A DNA stretch of 10,801 nucleotides, from IMG/VR virus record IMGVR_UViG_2778261086_000004; one strand, 5' to 3'. The notes beneath the pieces are model-generated. The model was not told the DNA's origin, made no database searches, and was given only the letters and a program-made list of their open reading frames with translations. A program made the position numbers and the translations under genes. Shown piece by piece: positions 685-10,801 of the stretch. Numbering within the stretch: position 1 is the first letter of the stretch; every line of letters begins with the position of its first letter. This DNA comes from a virus. Its lineage: Duplodnaviria > Heunggongvirae > Uroviricota > Caudoviricetes.

Positions 685-2097
685 ATGGCTACTTGGCAAC
701 AAGGAATCAACTCAGGCGGCTTTCTTGCTGGTATCGGTGGGCAAAACTCAAATGCGCCAAAGGCAAGTGATGTAAGTGAGGCGTTGGCCTATATTCGCCA
801 GAACAACGAAATGGAGCGCTCAGGTCGCAATAACATCGGCCTTCAGGCGTTGCAGGGGCTTGGTAGTGTCGCTCAAACATATCAAGCCGCAAAGCAACAG
901 GAAGCGGATGCTGCATTCCAAAAAGAATATGCGGCAGCCATCCAGTCAGGTGATCGGCAGCAGGTGCGAGATCTGATGACCAAATATCCTGGTCAATTAG
1001 AGAAGATTCAGTCTGGTATGAAGTGGGCAGACGAAGACCAGCGCAATTCTATCGGCACCTTAGCGGCTGGCGCACGCCTTGCTGCCTCGTCTCCAGAAGC
1101 AATGCAATCATGGCTGCAAAACAACGCCAAGGAACTGACTCGCGTCGGTGTTGACCCTAATAACGTTGCTCAGATGTATCAGCAGAATCCTTCAGGATTT
1201 GGTGAGTTTGTTGATCACCTTGGAATGGCTGCGCTTGGTCCGATTGATTACTTCAATGTTCAGGACAAGATGGTTGGTCGTGAGATTGACCGAGGCAGGC
1301 TGGCAGAGACAATCCGCAGCAATCAGGCTGGCGAGGCACTTCAGGCGAGAGGGCAAAACCTTTCCTATCAGTCAGCAATGACTGGGCACAATATCGCAGC
1401 ACAACGTTTGGCTCTGGATCAGCAAGAGTTCGGGTTTAAGATGCAGCAAGCGCAGGAAAAGGCTCAGCAGTTGATTAGCGAAGCACCTAAGCTGTCAGTA
1501 AACATGGAAAAAGGCATCGAGACGGCTGTAAACAATGCCACAGCATCATCAAACTCAGCCAATTCCATGAGTGCGCTTGCTCAACAGTTTAGAGCAGAAA
1601 AACCAACGACAGGTTTGTTCGGTAACGCACAGAACATGTTCGCAAAACTTACCGGAAGCGATACGACATTGCGTGATTTGCGCATTCGCCAAAATGCCCT
1701 TGTTAACAGTCAGGTTCTTAAATTCCTACCTCCCGGCCCAGCAACGGATAAAGACGTTGAGATCGTTCGACAGGGTGCGCCAACTGACATGGATAACCCT
1801 GAGACGGTCGCAAGATGGCTTGATGCAATGGCAAACCTTGAGCGACGAAACGCGCAGTTTAATGAGTTTAAAGCCGAGTGGATGAGCGCGAATGGCAACC
1901 CTGGACAATCGCGTAATGGCGGTCAGATATTGGGGTTGGATGTTAAAAAAGGTGAATCATTGGGGAGTGCCGTTAAGCGGTATATGTCAATGAATACTGA
2001 CGCAGCGCCAGCACAAGATTCGACACCTTCAGGAGAACCACGGAATCAGGTTGGATCATATACCTCAAAATCAGGCATTCAATTTACGGTGGAATGA
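685..2097 (+). CDS. P22 gp20-like ejection protein
   Basis: 470-aa ORF (P22 gp20 is about 471 aa); SD-like AAGGTGG at 674-680 before ATG 685; stop overlaps the next start (ATGA at 2094-2097), indicating translational coupling. Confidence 0.7.
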
Positions 2098-3923
2098 TGA
2101 AAGTAACTGCAAACGGTAAGACATTTACCTTCCCTGATGGTACGAGCACGGAAGATATTGGCACCGCCATTGATGAGTATTTTGCTGGTCAGGCTGTTCA
2201 GCAAAAAACAGTTAATCAGGACAATAATGCACCAACACGGGAAGAACCATCATTGATGCAACAAGCTGGCGATTGGCTCACTGGTGGTCAAAGTGCAGGG
2301 CAAATTGCAGAACAGGCTGGTCGTGGTCTGGTAAACATACCATTTGACGTATTGCAGGGTGGCGCAAGTCTGATTAATGCAATCAGTCAGGGGCTTGGTG
2401 GGCCAAAAGTATTGGATGATGTCTATCGTCCAGTCGATAGACCGACAGACCCTTATGCGCAAGCTGGAGAAACAATTGGCGGGTATTTAGTTCCAGGAGT
2501 TGGAACGGCAGGAAGCATGGCTATTGGATCACTGGCAGAGGCCGCAAATCAGAAAGGCGATTTCGCACAAAATGCAGCTAAAAATGCCGGAGTTAACCTT
2601 GCCGCTCAGGGGGTTCTTTCCGCAGCCGCAAAGGGAATAGGGCGTGGAATAACGGCTATAAAAGGTGATATTGCGCCAGAAGTGGCGAAGAAAATTGCCA
2701 CATCAGAATCGATGGGCGTGACACCAATGACATCTGATGTAATCCCGCCGAAAAATGCTTTCACTCGTGGCCTTACTCAGGATGCTGAGGGGGCTTTGCT
2801 CGGGACAGGATCAAAGAGAGCGGAGCAGTATGCAAAAAGAAGTCAGCTAGTTAAAAAACAGCTTGAGAAATATGGTGAATATAGCCCATCAGTTGTTGTT
2901 GACGATCTGTATGGTTCTCTGAAGTCAAGGAAGGATTCGGCCGGAAGCGTTATTGAAGACATTACAACCAAAATGGGAGACACACCTGTTGACACATCAA
3001 AATCTATTAAGGTTATCGACAACGTACTTACAAGAGCTAACAGGCTTGGGAAAGTGGCAAATAAGAATTTGATTCGCGGGTTATCCGATTTGCGAGAAGA
3101 ACTTGCTAAACCAGATATAGATTTTGGTCTATTGAGAGAGTTGCGGTCAGCCTTGAGGGAAAGTATTCAGGGAGATGCCATGGTTTTTCCTAATAGCGCG
3201 AAAGCCTCAACTGATGCCGTGGAGAGGGCAATGGGGGCAGATTTGAGGAATAACGCAGCGCGGTATTTGGGGGCTGGAGAGGCCGCCAGATACGTCAAAG
3301 CAAACTCTGACTACTCCAACGTCTTCAATAAAGTTCTCAATAAAAGGATTGCGAATAATCTCAACAAAGCTAAAAAAGAGTTTACTCCAGAGCTAATAAA
3401 CAGCGTTGTATTCAGCAGAAAACCATCAGATATTAAGAGGATATGGCCTACTCTTAGTGAAGATGGAAAGAACGCTATGCGTGCTGCTTATATCAGCAAG
3501 ATTGCAGAAAAAGCAGGAGACTCGCCAACAAAATTTCTTACCGAGTTAAATAAGTTGAAGTCGCAATCTGACGGTCAGATCTATAACACGATATTCAGTG
3601 GGAGACACATGAAAGAGCTTGATGCTCTTCATGAAGTTCTACAGCAAACAGCAAGGTCGGACACCGCAAATGTAGTAACTCAGACGGGGCAATCACAAGC
3701 CAACAGGATAAGGACGATTGGCGCAACTGCGACTCTTGGGGCAACACTGGCGCTTGAATCTGGTTTCGGTGCAATGATGCGCCTGTATGAGTCCAAAGCA
3801 ACGAGGAATGCGCTCTTACGTCTGGCAAACACTAAAGCTGGAACGCCAGCCTATGAAAGAGCGCTGAATAACGCTGCGAATGCCATCAGGCCGCTGCTTG
3901 CCACTGAGGCAACACAGCAGTAA
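2094..3923 (+). CDS. P22 gp16-like ejection protein
   Basis: 609-aa ORF, the same length as P22 gp16; start overlaps the stop of the preceding gene; last gene of the ejection-protein trio in P22-like gene order. Confidence 0.7.
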
Positions 3924-3940
3924 CTAAATGCCATGGATGG

Positions 3941-4228
3941 CTATTTTTTAGTGTAATAATCATCAAAATCGCAAGAAACAGATATCACAAAACCTGAAGT
4001 CATAGAAAAAGACAGGGTTTCACATGCCTTTCCGGCTTGATGGTATGCATTGATGCCACCGTATACGGATTCTCTTGATGAAAACAATGATTTTTCACCG
4101 TTTTTTTCTACAAGAATATGCCCATCTGAATCATTAATAAACCAAACAGAAATAGAGGAGCTTTCGCCAAGGAATGTTCTGTTGAATACCATGGGGGATT
4201 TACCCTTGACAACATTTTCTGCGCGCAT
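3941..4228 (-). CDS. Hypothetical protein, 95 aa, no recognised domain
   Basis: Minus-strand ORF whose ATG (4228-4226) lies 2 nt after the TGA of the upstream minus-strand small ORF (TGAttATG). AT-rich region; sequence looks protein-like but I recognise no homolog. Confidence 0.4.
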   Translation of the reverse strand: MRAENVVKGKSPMVFNRTFLGESSSISVWFINDSDGHILVEKNGEKSLFSSRESVYGGINAYHQAGKACETLSFSMTSGFVISVSCDFDDYYTKK

Positions 4229-4230
4229 AA

Positions 4231-4389
4231 TCAGCTCAGCATTTTTTTGCTATTTTTTTGTTCTGTATAGATTTTGTCTGCCACAAAATAAACAATGGCA
4301 ATGGCTAACAAAGATAGGGAAATCAGCAATGCCTTTTTAATCAATTTTTTGGCATCCCTGTAAATCTCAATTGATAATTTTTCACTCAC
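4231..4389 (-). CDS. Hypothetical small single-pass membrane protein (about 52 aa) from a GTG start
   Basis: Strong SD AGGAGG (rc of 4395-4400) 5 nt upstream of in-frame GTG (4389-4387). Predicted TM helix ALLISLSLLAIAIVYFV flanked by Lys-rich segments. The longer 124-aa reading (4231..4605) overlaps the plus-strand gene and its N-terminal part looks non-coding. Confidence 0.35.
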   Translation of the reverse strand: MSEKLSIEIYRDAKKLIKKALLISLSLLAIAIVYFVADKIYTEQKNSKKMLS

Positions 4390-4419
4390 ACCAACCTCCT
4401 TAGTTTTGAGCAGGATACC

Positions 4420-4785
4420 ATGAAAAAAGTTAACATTGGAAACGTACCAAAGATGCTCGTTCCGCTTTTTGAGAGCGGTACAATTGTGTTTTGTAGAGAC
4501 TTTCCAGAATGGCAACGCCTGCATCAAAAACTTGGCGTTGACGTGCAGGACTCGGACGCCAACGGAGCGTCTCATACAATGAGCAGCGAGAATGGTGTTT
4601 TGCATGTGATAGGTGTGTTCAATGGCAAACTATCTACTATTGCCCATGAGTGCGCTCACATGGCATTCGATATCTGCTCAAGGGTAGGTGTTGATGTTGA
4701 ACCAGGAAGAGCCAACGAGACTTACTGCTACTTAATGAGCAGGCTTGTTGAGTTCTGCGAGCGACATATCAAAAAGCCGGAGTGA
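4420..4785 (+). CDS. Hypothetical protein, 121 aa, with HExxH (HECAH) zinc-metallopeptidase-like motif
   Basis: ORF with AGGA at 4412-4415 before ATG 4420; stop TGA sits in the loop of a bidirectional terminator hairpin. Motif IAHECAHMAF in a hydrophobic context resembles a zincin active-site helix; no family assigned. Confidence 0.55.
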   Translation: MKKVNIGNVPKMLVPLFESGTIVFCRDFPEWQRLHQKLGVDVQDSDANGASHTMSSENGVLHVIGVFNGKLSTIAHECAHMAFDICSRVGVDVEPGRANETYCYLMSRLVEFCERHIKKPE

Positions 4786-4798
4786 CCCGGCTTGATTA
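4774..4798. terminator. Bidirectional intrinsic terminator between convergent genes
   Basis: Stem aagccgg (4774-4780), loop agtgac, stem ccggctt (4787-4793); A-run upstream and T-rich tract downstream (gattattactttttgc), so it can terminate both strands. Confidence 0.5.
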
Positions 4799-4978
4799 TT
4801 ACTTTTTGCTGTCTGGAGTTCGCTTATCCAATACCCAGCCATGACCTGGCTTTGTTGTTGGCGGAAGTCTTTCGTTGTCCCTGACGGTGGCAAAATTGTC
4901 CTTCTTACCACCGCGTGGCCCAACTTCCTGGTATATTCCGCCGTTTTTCCCTGTATTTTCACCTGGTTTTTTCGCCAT
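4799..4978 (-). CDS. Small YjzC-like protein (59 aa from MAKKPGENTG...)
   Basis: In the 64-aa ORF 4799..4993 the likely start is the internal ATG at 4978-4976, preceded by GAGGT. Pattern KPGE..G.NGGIY.EVG..G...LPPTT..G.W resembles the YjzC-like small-protein family as I recall it. Confidence 0.55.
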   Translation of the reverse strand: MAKKPGENTGKNGGIYQEVGPRGGKKDNFATVRDNERLPPTTKPGHGWVLDKRTPDSKK

Positions 4979-5014
4979 GATATACCTCAACATACACCCG
5001 TTATTGGGCGATTA

Positions 5015-5043
5015 AATATTGATCTCATTTTATAAGTAGTCAA
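5015..5043 (-). promoter_or_regulatory. Putative sigma70-type promoter for the YjzC-like gene
   Basis: On the minus strand: TTGACT (rc of 5038-5043), 17-bp spacer, AATATT (5015-5020), about 35 nt upstream of the ATG at 4978. Sequence inspection only. Confidence 0.25.
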
Positions 5044-5070
5044 TATGGCCCAGGTAAATGCAAAAATTAA

Positions 5071-5092
5071 CCCACCTTCAGGTGGGTTTTTT
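5071..5092 (+). terminator. Intrinsic terminator (cccacc-ttca-ggtggg plus T6)
   Basis: Perfect 6-bp GC-rich stem with 4-nt loop followed by TTTTTTGT; an A-rich run upstream gives some bidirectional potential. Confidence 0.55.
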
Positions 5093-5144
5093 GTACAAAT
5101 CCTTCAGCCAGTACATAACTACTGACAGATAACCAACGCAACGA

Positions 5145-5167
5145 CCCAGCTTCGGCTGGGTTTTTTT
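5145..5167 (+). terminator. Intrinsic terminator (cccagc-ttcg-gctggg plus T7)
   Basis: 6-bp stem, tetraloop ttcg, followed by TTTTTTTAT; second of two tandem terminators upstream of the tailspike gene. Confidence 0.55.
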
Positions 5168-5173
5168 ATGCCC

Positions 5174-5193
5174 AAAATTCACCGTGTCCACGC
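5174..5193. repeat. Copy 1 of a 20-bp direct repeat (AAAATTCACCGTgtCCAcGC)
   Basis: Matches 5285-5304 (AAAATTCACCGTagCCAtGC) at 17 of 20 positions, about 111 bp apart, flanking the 23-bp palindrome. Confidence 0.4.
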
Positions 5194-5216
5194 TTAGGTA
5201 ATGAGCTTGAAGGAGA

Positions 5217-5239
5217 GCACTACACAAAAAGTGTAGTGC
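5217..5239. promoter_or_regulatory. 23-bp perfect palindrome GCACTACAC-AAAAA-GTGTAGTGC; candidate operator or RNA structure
   Basis: 9-bp perfect inverted repeat with 5-bp A spacer about 100 bp upstream of the tailspike start; no T-tract on either side, so it is unlikely to be a terminator. Confidence 0.4.
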
Positions 5240-5284
5240 AAAAAGCGAACAAAATAACTTCCTAAAAAGTTGTTTTATCACAAA

Positions 5285-5304
5285 AAAATTCACCGTAGCC
5301 ATGC
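5285..5304. repeat. Copy 2 of the 20-bp direct repeat
   Basis: See copy 1; lies about 30 bp upstream of the tailspike start codon. Confidence 0.4.
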
Positions 5305-5336
5305 TGCGGCGATTCCTTGTATCTGGAGCAAATTAA

Positions 5337-7103
5337 ATGACAGATTCGATAAATGCCAATGTTGTAGTGAGTATGCCTTCGCAACTCTTCACTATGGCGC
5401 GTTCTTTTAAAGCCGTTGCCAATGGAAAAATTTATATCGGTAAAATTGATACTGACCCGGTAAATCCAGAAAACCAGATTCAGGTTTATATGGAGAACGA
5501 AGACGGCTCTCACGTTCCTGTTTCGCAACCAATCATCATTAACGCTGCTGGTTATCCGGTATATAACGGACAGATTGCAAAGTTCGTTACCGTACAGGGA
5601 CATTCAATGGCTGTGTATGACGCATATGGCACACAGCAGTTCTACTATCCAAACATTCTCAAGTATGACCCGGACCAGTTCCGGCATGAGCTAGAGGGAG
5701 AGTTTGCAAGCGGGGCATTCCCTGAAACAGTAAAGTATAAGTATGGATTACCATCTGTTGTTGATGGTGCTGTCTTCAGGAATGTACAAGAAAAGCTGGA
5801 TGATTTTGTATTTTTGGAAGACTTTGGTGGCAAAGACGATTCTGGAATAACAGATAATAGCATAGCCTTTCAGAAGGCATTCGCTTCAGGCGCAAGAAAA
5901 ATTCACTTGAAAGGTTCTGGCATATATGGAATGAAGACCAGAGACATTGAGCTTCCAGCAAAATATGAAATTATTGGTAATGCAAAAAATCCAGAGATTA
6001 AATATCTAGGTTCTGATTCAACCTTCACTATGTTTACCCTTACAGGGTCTGGCCCGGCTTCTAGTCAGTGGAAACAGGGTGGCATATTCCGAGATGTAGT
6101 CATATCATCCGACGTGCTGATTAACTGGATTGTTTGTCGTCATGTCCAGAACTTAGAGTTTGATCGGGTGTTTTTCTATAACGCACAAACTACTATGAAC
6201 AACTACCATTACTTTAACTTCTTCCGGTGCGAACGTTGGGGTAGTCCATTCTTGGGGCGTGCGGATTTAAATACTGTGGAGTTCATCAGCGAATCACCTA
6301 AGTTTCTTATGTGTTTCAGTTCTAACTCTCCGATTGACGTATGGGATACCGCCGATTTATATATCAGCCAATGTACGATGTTTGTTGGAGATTACGCGGT
6401 AAGGACACGCACAACACTTGGTGGGATGGGTGGAACAGACCAATTCGCGGGTTATCCGGTTATAATTTCAAATAGCGTTTTCGATGCCATCAACGGCCCT
6501 GCTTTCGATATGGAGAGTCTAGCTTACGCTACCATCAGCGGTAACATTATTAGTGCTGGGAGGCCGAACAATGCTCGTGGGATACATATTAAAGGTGCTA
6601 GAAACCTGGCATTTACGGGAAATACTATCACCTACTGTGGTGAGTTTGGTATGGTGTTGGAAAATGCTGAACAATGCTCTTTGTCGAATAATATATACAA
6701 CGGAAATAAGACTGGCGGGCTATCGTTGGTAAATTGCAAAGAGGTATCTGTCATTGGCGGTGCTATGGGTACATCTTATATCCGGGGTGGTTACTACGTG
6801 CAACCACTGGGGATTACAGACCCCGGCGATAACTGTAACGGCATAACCATCAATGGCGTTTCTTTCGATAGCGATATGACAACCAAGATTTACCTTAATA
6901 CATCGGAAGAGCGCAAAAACCGTATTATAGCTTGTCTAGGTGTTAATGATACTCCGACGACTTATCAGAACAGGGGGTCTACCGCGCAGCGCCCTACAGC
7001 ACCAGTCAGTGGGCAGATGTATTATGATACAACGCTAGGTCTTCCAATATGGTATAACACAGTATCATCTGAATGGAAGAGGGCGGATGGTACAAGTGTA
7101 TGA
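5337..7103 (+). CDS. Tailspike protein: P22 gp9-type N-terminal head-binding domain fused to a divergent beta-helix receptor-binding domain
   Basis: 588 aa; GGAG at 5325-5328. The first roughly 110 residues ([12 protein letters not shown]...[26 protein letters not shown]...[13 protein letters not shown]...LKYDPDQ) closely match the P22 tailspike N-terminus from memory. The remainder has beta-helix-like repeats (ISGNII, FTGNTI, LSNNIY) but is not P22-like. Confidence 0.9.
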
Positions 7104-7134: not shown

Positions 7135-8601
7135 TTAATTGCAGTTGAATGTAATGTTTTTATCGTAAACAAAAATCTTCTTATCTCCGACGTCAATAAC
7201 CTTTGATGGATTACCAATCTCTTTAATTGTTATATTTCTCATAACCTCATCATCTGTAATTATGAAATTTCCTCCGCGCTCATACCAATAGTTTTTTGAC
7301 AACCATTTATTGCATGCAAGTATATTCAAACCTCGGTTTACATCAATCGGAGCAATTGATATGTCTCCATCTATACTTGCTGATGAAGCAAACCAGAAAG
7401 ATGCATACCCGTTTGTGAGGTTATTCTGCCTTACAGTGTGTTTTATCTGATTTATAATATCATTAGAATTGTCTTTTTTTTCATGCATATAAATAGAACA
7501 AAAGAGAATAAATGTTGTAACAACCCCTAATGCGATGAATTTCCACCCTCTGGAGTTGTTAGATCTGCCAATAACAACAGGTGCTAGTATGAAAAATGGA
7601 ACGATATATCTTATAGTCCATTCATCTATTGGACGGTTACTTGCAAGGTATGCTGGTATCATTATAATACAAGCTATACATATAGCCATATTGACCATGG
7701 AGGTTTTGAATATTTCCTTTACTGACATTGCAACTAATATAAGAAGTAAAATCATTACAACAAAACAAAAAACAGAAATAAGCGCTGTAATATCAGAAGG
7801 TGGTTTGCCAAAGAAGAAAGCTCCACTGTATAGGAGGAATCCTTTTACGAATAAGTATAAATTATTCAGGATATCATCAAATGCAACAAATGTTGGATCT
7901 GGAACGCCTGGCAAAATGTACCAGTTATGAGCTCTTGCGTACATGGTCATAATTTTTGATGCAACATATGCAAATATAGTTGCAACTAGTATGATCAGAT
8001 TTTTTTGGCTTTTGGTTTTTACTATAAAAACCACTGATGATATTGCTACTGGTGCAATAATGAGTAGCTTTATGATGTCATCACTGAAACAAGCTAGAAC
8101 TAACACTAAAATATAAAGAGATAGAGAAATTAACGATCTTGTTTTGGAAAAATTGTCTAACATTATGAAGCAAAACAACATGGATACATATGTGCCGACA
8201 TGTATCACAGGTATTAATACGTTTAATACTGCAAACCCAGAAGGCAGCGCAACGCAAAATGAAATGGCCCATAACGATGAAAGCCTTTCTTTTGAAAGAT
8301 AAAATGTCATCAATGTAACCATTGAATACATAATTGCCGGTATGCAGTATGCTTGGTACTGTCCGTACCAGAATACCTTTGAAGCAAGCCCGTACCATAT
8401 TATGTCTGTAAAATAGAATGATACTGTAGAGAGATACCATCCACTAAGCGTCCAATTTCCGTCCGCAATGTCCTTACCCTCAAGAAGTCCAGAAACAGCA
8501 TCCGAACTTGGCAAAATCTGTTTTGAAATCGAGGCGTAGAAGAAAGTCAAGAATATAAATCCAATGATATATATGGCTGTTTTTTTTATATTTAAAGTCA
8601 T
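7135..8601 (-). CDS. gtrC: GtrC-family serotype-specific O-antigen glucosyltransferase (polytopic membrane protein)
   Basis: 488-aa, markedly AT-rich ORF directly downstream of gtrB (TAA, 1 nt, ATG), with many hydrophobic segments; position and architecture typical of the type-specific third gene of gtr operons. Specificity cannot be assigned. Confidence 0.8.
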   Translation of the reverse strand: MTLNIKKTAIYIIGFIFLTFFYASISKQILPSSDAVSGLLEGKDIADGNWTLSGWYLSTVSFYFTDIIWYGLASKVFWYGQYQAYCIPAIMYSMVTLMTFYLSKERLSSLWAISFCVALPSGFAVLNVLIPVIHVGTYVSMLFCFIMLDNFSKTRSLISLSLYILVLVLACFSDDIIKLLIIAPVAISSVVFIVKTKSQKNLIILVATIFAYVASKIMTMYARAHNWYILPGVPDPTFVAFDDILNNLYLFVKGFLLYSGAFFFGKPPSDITALISVFCFVVMILLLILVAMSVKEIFKTSMVNMAICIACIIMIPAYLASNRPIDEWTIRYIVPFFILAPVVIGRSNNSRGWKFIALGVVTTFILFCSIYMHEKKDNSNDIINQIKHTVRQNNLTNGYASFWFASSASIDGDISIAPIDVNRGLNILACNKWLSKNYWYERGGNFIITDDEVMRNITIKEIGNPSKVIDVGDKKIFVYDKNITFNCN

Positions 8602-8602
8602 T

Positions 8603-9517
8603 TTACTTATCCTTTAGAATGTATCTTGGTCGTTGCTTAACTTCAACATAAATTCTTCCTATATACTCTCCAAGAACTCCTATGCCTATTAACTGAACTC
8701 CACCAAGAAACAATATTGATACAATGATAGAAGGGTAACCTGGAACACTATTTCCAAACATCAATTTATCAGCAATCATCCATGCTCCATAAAGGAATGA
8801 TAAGGTTGCCACAAACAGGCCTATATAAGTCCACATGCGCAAAGGGAAAGTAGAAAAGCTAGTGATCCCTTCCAGCGCTAAGTTCCAGAGCTTCCATCCA
8901 TTGAACTTTGTGCTTCCTGCAACGCGTTCTGCTCGCGCATATTCTACGACATCGGTTCGACCACCAACCCAGCTCAGCACACCCTTCATAAACAGGTTTC
9001 GTTCTGGCATGAGCTTAATGTTTTCTACTACTTCGCGAGACATGAGCCGGAAGTCGCCAACATTTTCTTCTATCTTAGGGTTGCTGATTTTGTTATGAAG
9101 TTTATAGAACCACTCAGCAGATTTACGCTTCAGCCTGCTGTCAGTGGAGCGGTCAGAGCGTTTAGCCAGAACCATATCTGCACCGGCCTGCCATTTCTCT
9201 ATCAAGTGAGGAATAACTTCGATAGGGTCTTGCAGATCAACGTCAATCGGGATAATTGCCTCCCCGGTAGCATGGTCCAGACCTGCGAACAGGGCGGGTT
9301 CTTTGCCGAAGTTACGTGTGAACGACAGCGAAACCACAAGCGGGTCGGCAACAGCAAGCTCGTTGATAATTGATTCTGTAGCGTCTTTGCTGCCATCGTT
9401 TATGAAGACTATCTCGACTTCATGCTGCTGAAGCCCTTCAAATTCGCGCACGGTTTTATAAAAAATAGGTATCGTGGCCTCTTCGTTAAAGACCGGAACG
9501 ACTAAAGAAATTTTCAT
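8603..9517 (-). CDS. gtrB: Bactoprenol glucosyltransferase GtrB (GT2 family)
   Basis: 304-aa protein beginning [13 protein letters not shown]..., with the DxD region (IPIDVDLQD) and C-terminal TM helices; near-identical in pattern to Shigella/Salmonella phage GtrB as recalled. ATGA overlap with gtrA. Confidence 0.92.
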
Positions 9518-9876
9518 TTCGCATCCCTAAAGACAATGAACTTTGAATAGACGAAACCGCACACCAGGCTGATGGCGGAGAAGGTGACAAGAGTTATCAT
9601 CGGGGGAAGTGCGCATCTATCAGCAGCCCATCCAACAGTAGCACTGAGTGTTCCCATGAACCCGACATATAACATGTAGCGCATCGTTGTAGTTGATGCT
9701 TTGAATGTGAATTTTGCATTCGCGAAGAAGCTAAAACTCACAGCCACAACGAAACCTGCGAAGTTTGCCAGAGCCTGATTGGTATGTGCGGCATAGATAC
9801 ATACACCAAAAACCACCCAGTGTATAAGTGTGTTCAGCACACCAATCGAGGTGTACCTTGCAAATATATTTAACAT
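9514..9876 (-). CDS. gtrA: Bactoprenol-linked glucose translocase (flippase) GtrA
   Basis: 120-aa small membrane protein ([24 protein letters not shown]...[13 protein letters not shown]) closely matching GtrA of serotype-converting phages as recalled; first gene of the gtr operon. Confidence 0.92.
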
Positions 9877-10038
9877 TTATTTAATCAATGAGTTCTGAAA
9901 GGTATGAAGTCTATCATCCAAGTCTCAATCGATCGATACTTGCGGTAGTTGATGAGGAAAACTCTGGTACACAAAGCTTTGCACTGGACTGCAAGGTGTT
10001 GTGCTTCTCTGGAGTGCGATATGTTTGATGACAAAAAA

Positions 10039-10073
10039 TTAGCGCAAGAGGACAAAAAATCACCTTGCGCTAA
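10039..10073 (-). terminator. Lambda sib/tI-like hairpin (integrase retroregulation element), minus-strand orientation
   Basis: Inverted repeat ttagcgcaag (10039-10048) and cttgcgctaa (10064-10073) with a 15-nt loop, followed on the minus strand by TTTTTTGTCA; sequence and position just outside the attP P arm match the lambda sib region as recalled. Confidence 0.5.
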
Positions 10074-10083
10074 TGCTCTGTCT

Positions 10084-10242
10084 CAGGTCACTAATACCAT
10101 CTAAGTAGTTGATTCATAGTGACTGGATATGTTGTGTTTTGTAGTATCATGCAGTCTATTTTTTAGACTAAATGTATTTTAACGCATTGATATTGTTGGC
10201 TTTTGCTGTTTCGCGTTCAGCTTTTTTATACTAACTTGAGCG
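10084..10242 (+). other. attR (P arm, core, B') of a lambda-type site-specific recombination system at the E. coli attB-lambda site
   Basis: Arm-type sites CAGGTCACTAATAC (10084-10097) and CATAGTGACTGG (about 10115-10128); the first roughly 75 bp of the arm are near-identical to the lambda attP P arm and the rest is diverged. Core GCTTTTTTATACTAA at 10220-10234 is followed by the bacterial B' sequence CTTGAGCGAAACG. Confidence 0.85.
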
Positions 10243-10293
10243 AAACGGGAAGGTAAAAAGACAAAAAGTTGTTTTTAATACCTTTAAGTGATA

Positions 10294-10316
10294 CCAGATG
10301 GCATTGCGCCATCTGG
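10294..10316 (-). terminator. Possible transcription terminator or stabilising hairpin downstream of ybhB
   Basis: 9-bp perfect stem ccagatggc / gccatctgg with 5-nt loop just 3' of the ybhB stop on the minus strand; the downstream U-tract is weak, so confidence is low. Confidence 0.3.
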
Positions 10317-10324
10317 CAGAGTGA

Positions 10325-10801
10325 TTAACTAAACATCGCAGTAATCGAGGCGCTTGCCAGAGAGTGGAAATGAACGTTAAACCCGACCATCGCGCCGCTG
10401 GCACCTTCATCGACATCAATACGTTCTATATCCAGCGCGTGAACGGTAAAAATGTAGCGATGAGTTTCGCCTTTCGGCGGTGCTGCGCCATCGTACCCGG
10501 TTTTACCAAAGTCGGTACGCGTCTGCAAAACGCCGTCTGGCATTGCTACCAGACCAGAGCCAAACCCTTGCGGTAATACGCGGGTATCAGCGGGTAAGTT
10601 AACAACTACCCAGTGCCACCAGCCGGAGCCGGTTGGCGCATCCGGGTCGTAGCAGGTGACAACAAAACTTTTCGTTCCCGCAGGAACATCATCCCACGCC
10701 AGATGCGGTGAAATATTATCGCCATCGTAACCCATGCCGTTAAAGACATGACGATGCGGCAATTTATCGCCATCGCGCAGATCGTTACTGATGAGTTTCA
10801 T
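10325..10801 (-). CDS. ybhB: Host PEBP/RKIP-family protein YbhB (complete, 158 aa)
   Basis: ORF translation MKLISNDLRDGDKLPHRHVFNGMGYDGDNISPHLAWDDVPAGTKSFVVTCYDPDAP... matches E. coli YbhB as recalled; ybhB is the gene beside attB-lambda on the bio side, transcribed toward the att site, as seen here. Confidence 0.9.
   Translation of the reverse strand: MKLISNDLRDGDKLPHRHVFNGMGYDGDNISPHLAWDDVPAGTKSFVVTCYDPDAPTGSGWWHWVVVNLPADTRVLPQGFGSGLVAMPDGVLQTRTDFGKTGYDGAAPPKGETHRYIFTVHALDIERIDVDEGASGAMVGFNVHFHSLASASITAMFS

Follow-up and report, generated by a model that had tools for sequence, protein, structure and literature searches.

We analysed a window of 10,801 nucleotides (nt) from the tailed-phage record IMGVR_UViG_2778261086_000004 in the IMG/VR collection, which carries the right arm of a P22-like prophage, and concentrated on the interval between its gene 16 homologue and its tailspike gene (positions 3924-5336). 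The left border of this variable region is gene 16 (2094-3923, plus strand), which encodes a 609-amino-acid (aa) ejection or DNA-transfer protein (phrog_770 'DNA transfer protein', E 2.4e-260). The right border is the gene 9 homologue (5337-7103, plus strand), whose tailspike product matches the P22 head-binding domain (Pfam Head_binding, E 1.3e-65) and Beta_helix. Between these borders lie a minus-strand gene in the position held by sieA in P22 (3941-4389), referred to here as the slot gene, followed by a homologue of hkcC (4420-4785, plus strand) and a convergent homologue of orf59a, or HkcD (4799-4978, minus strand). An initial annotation, made from the letters alone, had recognised the interval as a gene 16-tailspike hotspot, and this agrees with the survey of Villafane et al. 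(2008, PMC2629481), where it is called the 'ant moron', changes faster than any other part of the late operon and comes in ten types across sixteen genomes. As in that survey, the interval in the window sits between genes 16 and 9, is non-morphogenetic and variable, and takes the HK620 form with degraded mnt/ant; it has the gp16 and tailspike flanks and matches parts of the P22 and HK620 morons at 96.7-96.8% identity. The four small open reading frames (ORFs) that had been listed are all present where they were placed, but they appear to make up three genes, because the minus-strand 'pair' resolves into a single 149-aa gene.

The slot gene is a frameshifted allele of a single-pass membrane protein that is encoded by one 450-nt coding sequence in E. 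coli DETEC-S589 (protein WP_271287382.1). In the window it is read as two ORFs. The N-terminal fragment of 52 aa (4231-4389, minus strand) begins at a GTG codon behind a strong AAGGAGGT ribosome-binding site and consists of a cytoplasmic IYxDxK..KK motif, a membrane helix and a 3-residue out-of-frame tail; the membrane segment previously ascribed to it is real, and is the helix of the N-terminal part of the 149-aa protein. The C-terminal fragment of 95 aa (3941-4228, minus strand) starts at what is the internal Met55 and has no membrane anchor or signal sequence. The DNA of DETEC-S589 and that of the window are 99% identical and differ in length by a single-base gap, T8 in the former being T7 on the plus strand here (4242-4248; A7 on the coding strand, where intact alleles have 8). 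Restoring this base in the alignment with DETEC-S589 joins the 52-aa and 95-aa ORFs into the 149-aa protein, and that exact joined sequence is encoded by one IMG/VR locus. Judged by this alignment, the pair is one gene split by the loss of one base from an A8 tract. With its product reduced to a membrane stub of 52 aa and a 95-aa ORF that has neither anchor nor export signal, the slot gene is most likely non-functional in the window, and decay by frameshift would fit the prophage being a remnant, as set out below.

The position of the slot gene appears to be a cassette site with precise boundaries. The same position and orientation are held by sieA in P22 and by hkcB in HK620, and a comparison of P22, HK620, DETEC-S589 and the window finds unrelated sequence inside the slot gene and identity from its CAC (GTG) start codon outward. 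The shared stretch beyond the start consists of the AAGGAGGT ribosome-binding site, a 30-nt leader and the region annotated as PsieA. These elements, the ribosome-binding site, 5' leader and sieA-promoter-equivalent region, span 4390-4450 on the minus strand and overlap the first hkcC codons on the other strand; PsieA as annotated in P22-pbi maps to window positions 4420-4450. A promoter scan returned 2 sites where 3.3 are expected from shuffled sequence, which is fewer than chance, and the promoters predicted at 4349-4378 (plus strand) and 5043-5015 (minus strand) were therefore not relied on.

Junctions and occupants were surveyed in 80 IMG/VR contigs (L014-L093) with an hkcC that is 99-100% identical. 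The right junction falls at window positions 4376-4396, and at 4386-4387 in 49 of the 77 scorable contigs; the left junction, in the 80 contigs, lies close to the stop codon of gene 16, at 3884-3952. Counted along each locus, the slot gene stops some 30 nt short of position 4001. Because the two junctions sit at the gene 16 stop codon and the slot start codon, the exchanged unit appears to be essentially one coding sequence. The occupants fall into 11 groups that are mutually unrelated by BLAST: a lipoprotein of about 161 aa with a LAGC lipobox (16 contigs), SieA type A (12), a 129-aa protein with a signal peptide (10), an HkcB-like group of 109 aa that includes the HK620 HkcB sequence (8, as 6 + 2), a second HkcB-like group of 109 aa that is separate by BLAST (10), a 75-aa protein (8), a 106-aa protein (5), a 62-aa protein (4), the 149-aa family (3), and proteins of 68 aa and 99 aa (2 each). 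An N-terminal hydrophobic segment, signal peptide or lipobox is found in 10 of the 11; the 99-aa group lies just below the hydropathy threshold, and its N-terminus looks signal-peptide-like by eye. The occupants thus range over a lipoprotein, secreted proteins and membrane proteins of one to four helices, and most of them are joined to the common promoter and ribosome-binding site at the start codon or no more than about 10 nt from it. Function is known for SieA alone among them. The 149-aa family, the start-codon-precise junction and the envelope theme are all absent from the 2008 survey of 16 genomes (PMC2629481).

Beyond the slot, the interval follows P22 and HK620 closely: window positions 4387-5108 are 96.8% identical to P22 and 4381-5400 are 96.7% identical to HK620. 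A bidirectional intrinsic terminator lies between hkcC and orf59a (4774-4793), annotated as 'tORF59A bidirectional' in HK620 and 't mnt' in P22-pbi. Two further terminator hairpins (5069-5088 and 5143-5162) would be remnants of mnt-arc-ant; HK620 annotates the equivalents as 'tMNT... remnant of P22 mnt gene' and 'tANT', and because of this correspondence we consider mnt-arc-ant (immunity I) to have been deleted here, as in HK620. The prophage itself is also incomplete. Six separate samples have yielded sibling contigs that match the window at 100% identity, over as much as 10,228 nt (siblings GCA_053341725.1, GCA_017003635.1, SRR26621116, SRR28168480, SRR13724640 and SRR6106875), and three siblings, identical to the window where they overlap it, reach beyond gene 7. 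In these, just before window position 1, gene 14 is cut to residues 52-157 and fused to early-left DNA (L105:10212-10810; also L107 and L111), and genes of the lar-like, xis and int kinds lie 0.6-1.1 kilobases (kb) from the fused gene 14. Since the siblings show this truncation and its fusion to the early-left, xis and int region, the prophage is best described as a deletion remnant of roughly 12-13 kb that retains the ejection proteins, tailspike and gtrABC. It has lost the genes for head, terminase, lysis and regulation, and presumably the late promoter as well.

Taken together, window positions 3924-5336 are in our view probably an HK620-type degenerate P22 ant moron, on a defective P22-like remnant, made up of three independent parts. 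This differs in several respects from the initial annotation, which saw a single four-gene cassette, suggested to be horizontally acquired cargo and forming the best candidate in the window for an undescribed system. The AT-richness on which that view leaned holds for the slot gene (GC content 0.354) but not for hkcC (0.462) or orf59a (0.483) when set against gene 16 (0.466), so that the AT-rich cargo is the slot gene alone; half of the supposed cargo is conserved P22 sequence. Likewise, the slot gene does stand in place of P22 sieA, but the 121-aa and 59-aa ORFs that were thought to stand in for other P22 genes are present in P22 too, between sieA and mnt. The candidate gene is broken here and the other two are known P22/HK620 ORFs. 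A system expressed in the lysogen, with an induction phenotype, does not apply as proposed to an element whose 100% identical siblings are defective remnants. What did hold is that the four ORFs are not all homologous to structural or housekeeping proteins, and none has an assigned function. Three points weigh against our reading. The promoter assignment depends on an annotation of PsieA in P22-pbi that is itself 'putative'; the deletion junction is seen solely in identical sibling contigs, beyond the edge of the window; and the slot may accept any small envelope protein regardless of its function.

The intact 149-aa protein belongs to a very small family: a set of 5.8 billion sequences contains 4 clusters of it at 90% identity, and one of 1.84 billion contains 15 representatives at 50%, of which 11 are full-length relatives of 146-155 aa. 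The intact form occurs in 5 of 5,426 complete E. coli genomes. Alignment and hydropathy define a basic N-terminus with the IYxDxK..KK motif, a single hydrophobic helix spanning residues 20-38, and a C-terminal domain that carries a W-x-x-x-D-[ST]-D-x-H motif; C123 and C140 are kept in nearly all full-length members. The C-terminal domain, some 100 aa long, is probably beta-rich. Because of this conserved cysteine pair and the KK-rich N-terminus, we infer an N-in topology with a periplasmic C-terminal domain. Searches of the 149-aa protein and the family alignment against Pfam, PHROG, NCBIfam, PADLOC and PDB sequences gave no real match, and tblastn of the slot protein against 50,697 phage GenBank records gave nothing. 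Matches to an Rz-like spanin and to Sigma_reg_N (E >= 0.004) were set aside as chance similarities driven by the membrane helix. Members at 70, 32, 27 and 23% identity lie directly after gene 16, and convergent to it, in P22-like prophages, and in all five other contexts examined the gene is beside gene 16. The adjoining gp16 is of different types: 613-615 aa with PF26808, 730 aa with no domain, or 894 aa with an SLT domain. From its sequence and context, the family appears to be a new, unannotated and rare positional analogue of SieA. Two of its morons carry additional toxin-like or defence-like cargo (L004:1149-5973 and L108:189-5136): a Salmonella prophage moron also holds a SocA_Panacea-domain protein, and a second moron holds a YafO-toxin-domain protein beside a K1F-type endosialidase tailspike.

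SieA is a proven inner-membrane exclusion protein of three types (A-C), which have similar multi-helix TMHMM profiles and a cytoplasmic motif, FxRYPxEAxxFNK (Leavitt et al., 2024, PMC10883804). A further mark of the class is a block to DNA injection by P22-like phages, which they escape through mutations in genes 16/20. The 149-aa family resembles SieA in its slot, on the minus strand and convergent to gene 16, in its GTG context, ribosome-binding site and PsieA region, and in being a small envelope protein found in P22-like prophages only. It differs in having one helix and a beta domain of about 100 aa, where P22 SieA has about four helices, and the FxRYPxEAxxFNK motif is absent from it. Comparison of the family profile with P22 SieA by hhalign gave a probability of 0.2% (E 0.27) over a helix overlap of 19 columns only. 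We have consequently not filed the family as SieA, with which it appears to share position alone. HkcB of HK620 seems equally unrelated (hhalign probability 0.4%): it occupies the same slot and has an N-terminal hydrophobic segment, but it is a 109-aa protein with a membrane helix and a coiled coil. The other sieA-slot cassettes also share the slot and the N-terminal hydrophobic segments, but they are lipoproteins, secreted proteins or tiny multi-helix proteins. Small envelope proteins, encoded by phages or prophages, that face the periplasm and block DNA entry are found in other systems, among them T4 Sp and Imm, lactococcal Sie2009, TP-J34 Ltp and HK97 gp15. Their anchored extracytoplasmic domain is like the architecture predicted for the slot family; this is an analogy of mechanism only, without detectable similarity of sequence or fold.

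These comparisons suggest what an intact slot protein might do. It would have a short basic N-terminus, a single inner-membrane helix and a beta-rich domain facing the periplasm, and would serve as a prophage-expressed envelope factor acting on the delivery of incoming phage DNA; as such it would be a functional analogue of SieA and not a homologue. An exclusion role of this kind is suggested because of the slot position, the shared expression signals and the envelope location. Interference with incoming DNA delivery, in the manner of SieA, is for us the most likely function of the intact protein, but we hold it tentatively and would not give it even chances. The main alternative, realistic if not likely, is that the intact family serves another role of the prophage in the host envelope, such as lysogenic conversion, resistance to another phage class or to colicins, or an abortive-infection effector. 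The structural diversity of the slot occupants would suit such a role, as would the toxin-like nature of neighbouring ant-moron cargo elsewhere (SocA_Panacea, YafO), and no sequence or fold link to any exclusion protein turned up. It accounts less readily for the strict linkage to an ejection gene, which holds from 23 to 99% identity and across gp16 types, or for the fact that PsieA and the ribosome-binding site are those of a proven exclusion gene. SieA-like exclusion remains the function that we favour for the intact protein.

The other two genes of the interval are of a different kind. The hkcC homologue encodes a soluble protein of 121 aa (phrog_1365, E 1.4e-39, residues 1-121) and is annotated under this name in HK620, while orf59a encodes a basic, Gly/Pro-rich protein of 59 aa (phrog_3202, E 2.7e-31) that is 97% identical to P22 orf59a. 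The ORF list gives the latter 64 aa from an upstream ATG; the 59-aa start has a GAGG site and fits the annotated homologues. Both are direct orthologues of their P22 and HK620 counterparts, with the same order, orientation and shared terminator and no difference of substance, and both appear in Villafane et al. (2008, PMC2629481) as P22 genes without a known role. We found no functional studies of hkcC, hkcB, orf59a or YjzC in the literature. A 1,551-nt query across the region matches, in at least some part, about 928 of the 5,426 complete E. coli genomes. The HExxH motif noted in hkcC from the outset is HECAH at residues 76-80, and H76, E77 and H80, together with N99-E100-T101, are invariant in 20 sequences down to 43% identity. 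The Glu of this N-E-T lies 20 residues past the second His, a thermolysin-like spacing. An AlphaFold2 model (predicted local distance difference test score, pLDDT, 89; predicted template modelling score, pTM, 0.84) has a beta-sheet and two-helix core, a fold that is common among phage proteins in BFVD. The majority of these have not been characterised, and a small number bear the label SprT-like, metalloprotease or IrrE. HkcC would accordingly share with minimal zincin or SprT-like metallopeptidases the helix-borne HExxH, the downstream Glu and the beta-sheet and two-helix core, which we regard as a motif-level lead and not as a classification. Weak 'lantibiotic' matches on hkcC in Pfam and NCBIfam (E 0.025-0.14) were rejected, being due to the Cys/His-rich HECAH stretch. 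For orf59a, the proposed likeness to YjzC was borne out as a consistent similarity, but one that falls short of family membership: four homologues scored 18.4-18.7 bits (E about 0.002) against Pfam YjzC (PF14168), whose cut-off is 25. This suggests a distant, sub-threshold relative of YjzC.

Outside the near-identical P22/HK620 set, hkcC relatives of at least 46% identity were followed by a convergent orf59a in six of six contexts (Klebsiella oxytoca, Rosenbergiella, Xenorhabdus, Proteus, a Pasteurellaceae genome and a P22-like metagenome contig). In the siphophage-type prophages of Klebsiella and Rosenbergiella, the pair lies between the tail-tube/chaperone and tape-measure genes; pair loci outside P22-like phages are L005:5001-5563, L007:5001-5556, L094:5001-5559, L095 and L096. 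The pair seems to travel as a unit between phage types and to behave like a mobile two-gene module, and as far as we could find this linkage has not been reported earlier. More distant hkcC relatives of about 40% identity, from Kluyvera, Citrobacter, Mixta and Atlantibacter (L097-L101 and L104, at about 5001-5420), have no orf59a and sit between lysis (endolysin, Rz-like) and terminase genes in the orientation of the late genes. In every case hkcC points the way of the late genes and orf59a the opposite way. With the variable cassette lying immediately upstream, hkcC cannot possess a conserved promoter there, and the gene is therefore probably expressed by late-operon read-through from gene 16; we infer that orf59a, in turn, lies on the prophage-expressed strand.

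It is conceivable that hkcC and orf59a act as one system of two components, the 59-aa protein being processed or antagonised by the HExxH protein; an effector made by the prophage and a neutraliser made in the lytic cycle would be an example. Their convergent linkage in all six outside contexts, siphophage tail clusters included, and an orientation rule that holds everywhere are what one would expect of such a system, but the relatives at about 40% identity do without orf59a, the linkage could reflect hitch-hiking around one bidirectional terminator, and neither protein, nor the slot protein, gave a match in PADLOC at E <= 1. We regard the proposal as distinctly unlikely. Nor do the two resemble a co-transcribed toxin-antitoxin pair, being convergent with a terminator between them. 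At its most ambitious, our reading of the locus would be as follows. The slot would be a start-codon-anchored exchange site for at least 11 unrelated small envelope proteins, all behind one fixed promoter and ribosome-binding site. Among them the 149-aa protein would be a new superinfection-exclusion protein with a mechanism of its own, using a membrane-anchored, disulfide-stabilised beta domain to intercept the gp20/gp16 ejection conduit on the periplasmic side, and its A8 tract would make it prone to switching off; separately, hkcC and orf59a would be a mobile module of a zincin and a basic partner, engaged in defence or counter-defence. We offer this composite as speculation that is rather unlikely to hold in full.

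The state of the slot gene has its own alternative readings. Intact 149-aa forms are present on more than 370 contigs and fragments on 7 to 15; the exact 52-aa sequence is found on 7 contigs, and both fragment products are on record in several NCBI assemblies. The coding strand has three A-runs of 7-8 (window positions 4101-4107, 4242-4248 and 4253-4259), and independent truncated alleles of other strains map to each of these runs (proteins P0014, P0021 and P0022; loci L108 and L112), some matching slips at the two neighbouring A7 runs. At the 4242-4248 tract itself, A9 is found in two other prophage backgrounds with about 89% DNA identity. The gene therefore appears to break repeatedly at homopolymers, and it might be asked whether the A-tract acts as a switch, either by phase variation through slipped-strand mispairing or by a -1 slip of tRNA-Lys or RNA polymerase that yields some full-length protein. 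The occurrence of -1 (A7) and +1 (A9) alleles of one tract in different prophage backgrounds would agree with a switch, as would the further frameshifts in the two adjacent A7 runs, and one -1 slip on AAA AAA A would restore exactly the wild-type ...KKNAELIM.... However, relatives at 70-74% identity have NKKS or SKRS here at the protein level, such that the A8 tract may not be conserved; runs are to be expected in a gene as AT-rich as this; the off-alleles are rare and clonal; and there is no canonical X XXY YYZ heptamer in frame. In a decaying remnant plain decay is simpler, and we find a switch quite improbable. An error of sequencing or assembly, with the gene in reality intact, is suggested by the lesion being a one-base length change in a run of 8, which is a classic error site, but the A7 allele recurs in no fewer than six independent samples, set in sequence that is 100% identical elsewhere and comes from NCBI and Sequence Read Archive (SRA)-derived assemblies, and A8 is correctly assembled on hundreds of other contigs, which makes an error very improbable. 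Finally, the idea of a genuine, translationally coupled pair, such as a small membrane toxin with its partner, draws on the 2 nt between stop and start codons and on both ORFs being called as genes in several assemblies, but it is hardly credible given that one restored base yields a protein whose length of 146-155 aa is kept down to 23% identity, that the intact form is much commoner than the split one, that the 52-aa ORF ends in three junk residues read out of frame, that the 95-aa ORF starts at an internal Met without the anchor needed to leave the cytoplasm, and that the gene is broken at other A-runs in other lineages. The two ORFs, being one gene in relatives, do not qualify as a toxin-antitoxin pair either, and a slot gene inactivated by the loss of one base is the reading that we retain.

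For the window itself the outcome is a correction: three genes, of which one is a pseudogene and two are long-known P22/HK620 ORFs, on a dead prophage remnant. It is not promising as a stand-alone 'undescribed system', and what is new is confined to the 149-aa slot family and the comparative picture of the slot. The comparative result is the more useful one: the sieA position is a precisely bounded cassette site with 11 unrelated proteins in 80 related contigs. The mechanism by which SieA obstructs the ejection-protein conduit has yet to be resolved (PMC10883804), and structurally different proteins behind the same signals at the same locus are thus a ready panel for asking whether all of them block DNA delivery and at what step. 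Of these proteins, the 149-aa family is the likeliest to use a contact different from that of polytopic SieA, given that its domain is probably periplasmic.

The remainder of the window is that of a P22-like right arm, with gp7 (1-675) and gp20 (685-2097) upstream of gene 16, and gtrC, gtrB and gtrA (7135-9876, minus strand) downstream of the tailspike. The gene immediately 3' of the tailspike (7135-8601, minus strand) encodes a 488-aa multi-pass membrane protein, has the highest AT content of the window genes (GC content 0.343) and found no match in a Pfam search; from its gtrC position beside gtrB and gtrA we take it to be, probably, a serotype-specific O-antigen glucosyltransferase. An Rfam search of positions 3800-5400 gave nothing near threshold. 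Two further ORFs, an extended one of 124 aa (4231-4605) and one of 74 aa (5078-5302), were rejected as non-genes, having no family match and overlapping conserved signals or terminators. No tRNA genes were found in the window, and the attachment site is therefore not a tRNA gene; the end of the prophage adjoins a host PEBP-family gene (window positions 9877-10801), the gene itself lying at 10325-10801 (Pfam PBP, E 5.8e-42). A direct repeat of 21 nt (AAAATTCACCGT..C.CGCT, 86% identical) is found shortly before the start codon of the tailspike gene, at 5174-5194 and 5285-5305, the two copies being 111 nt apart.

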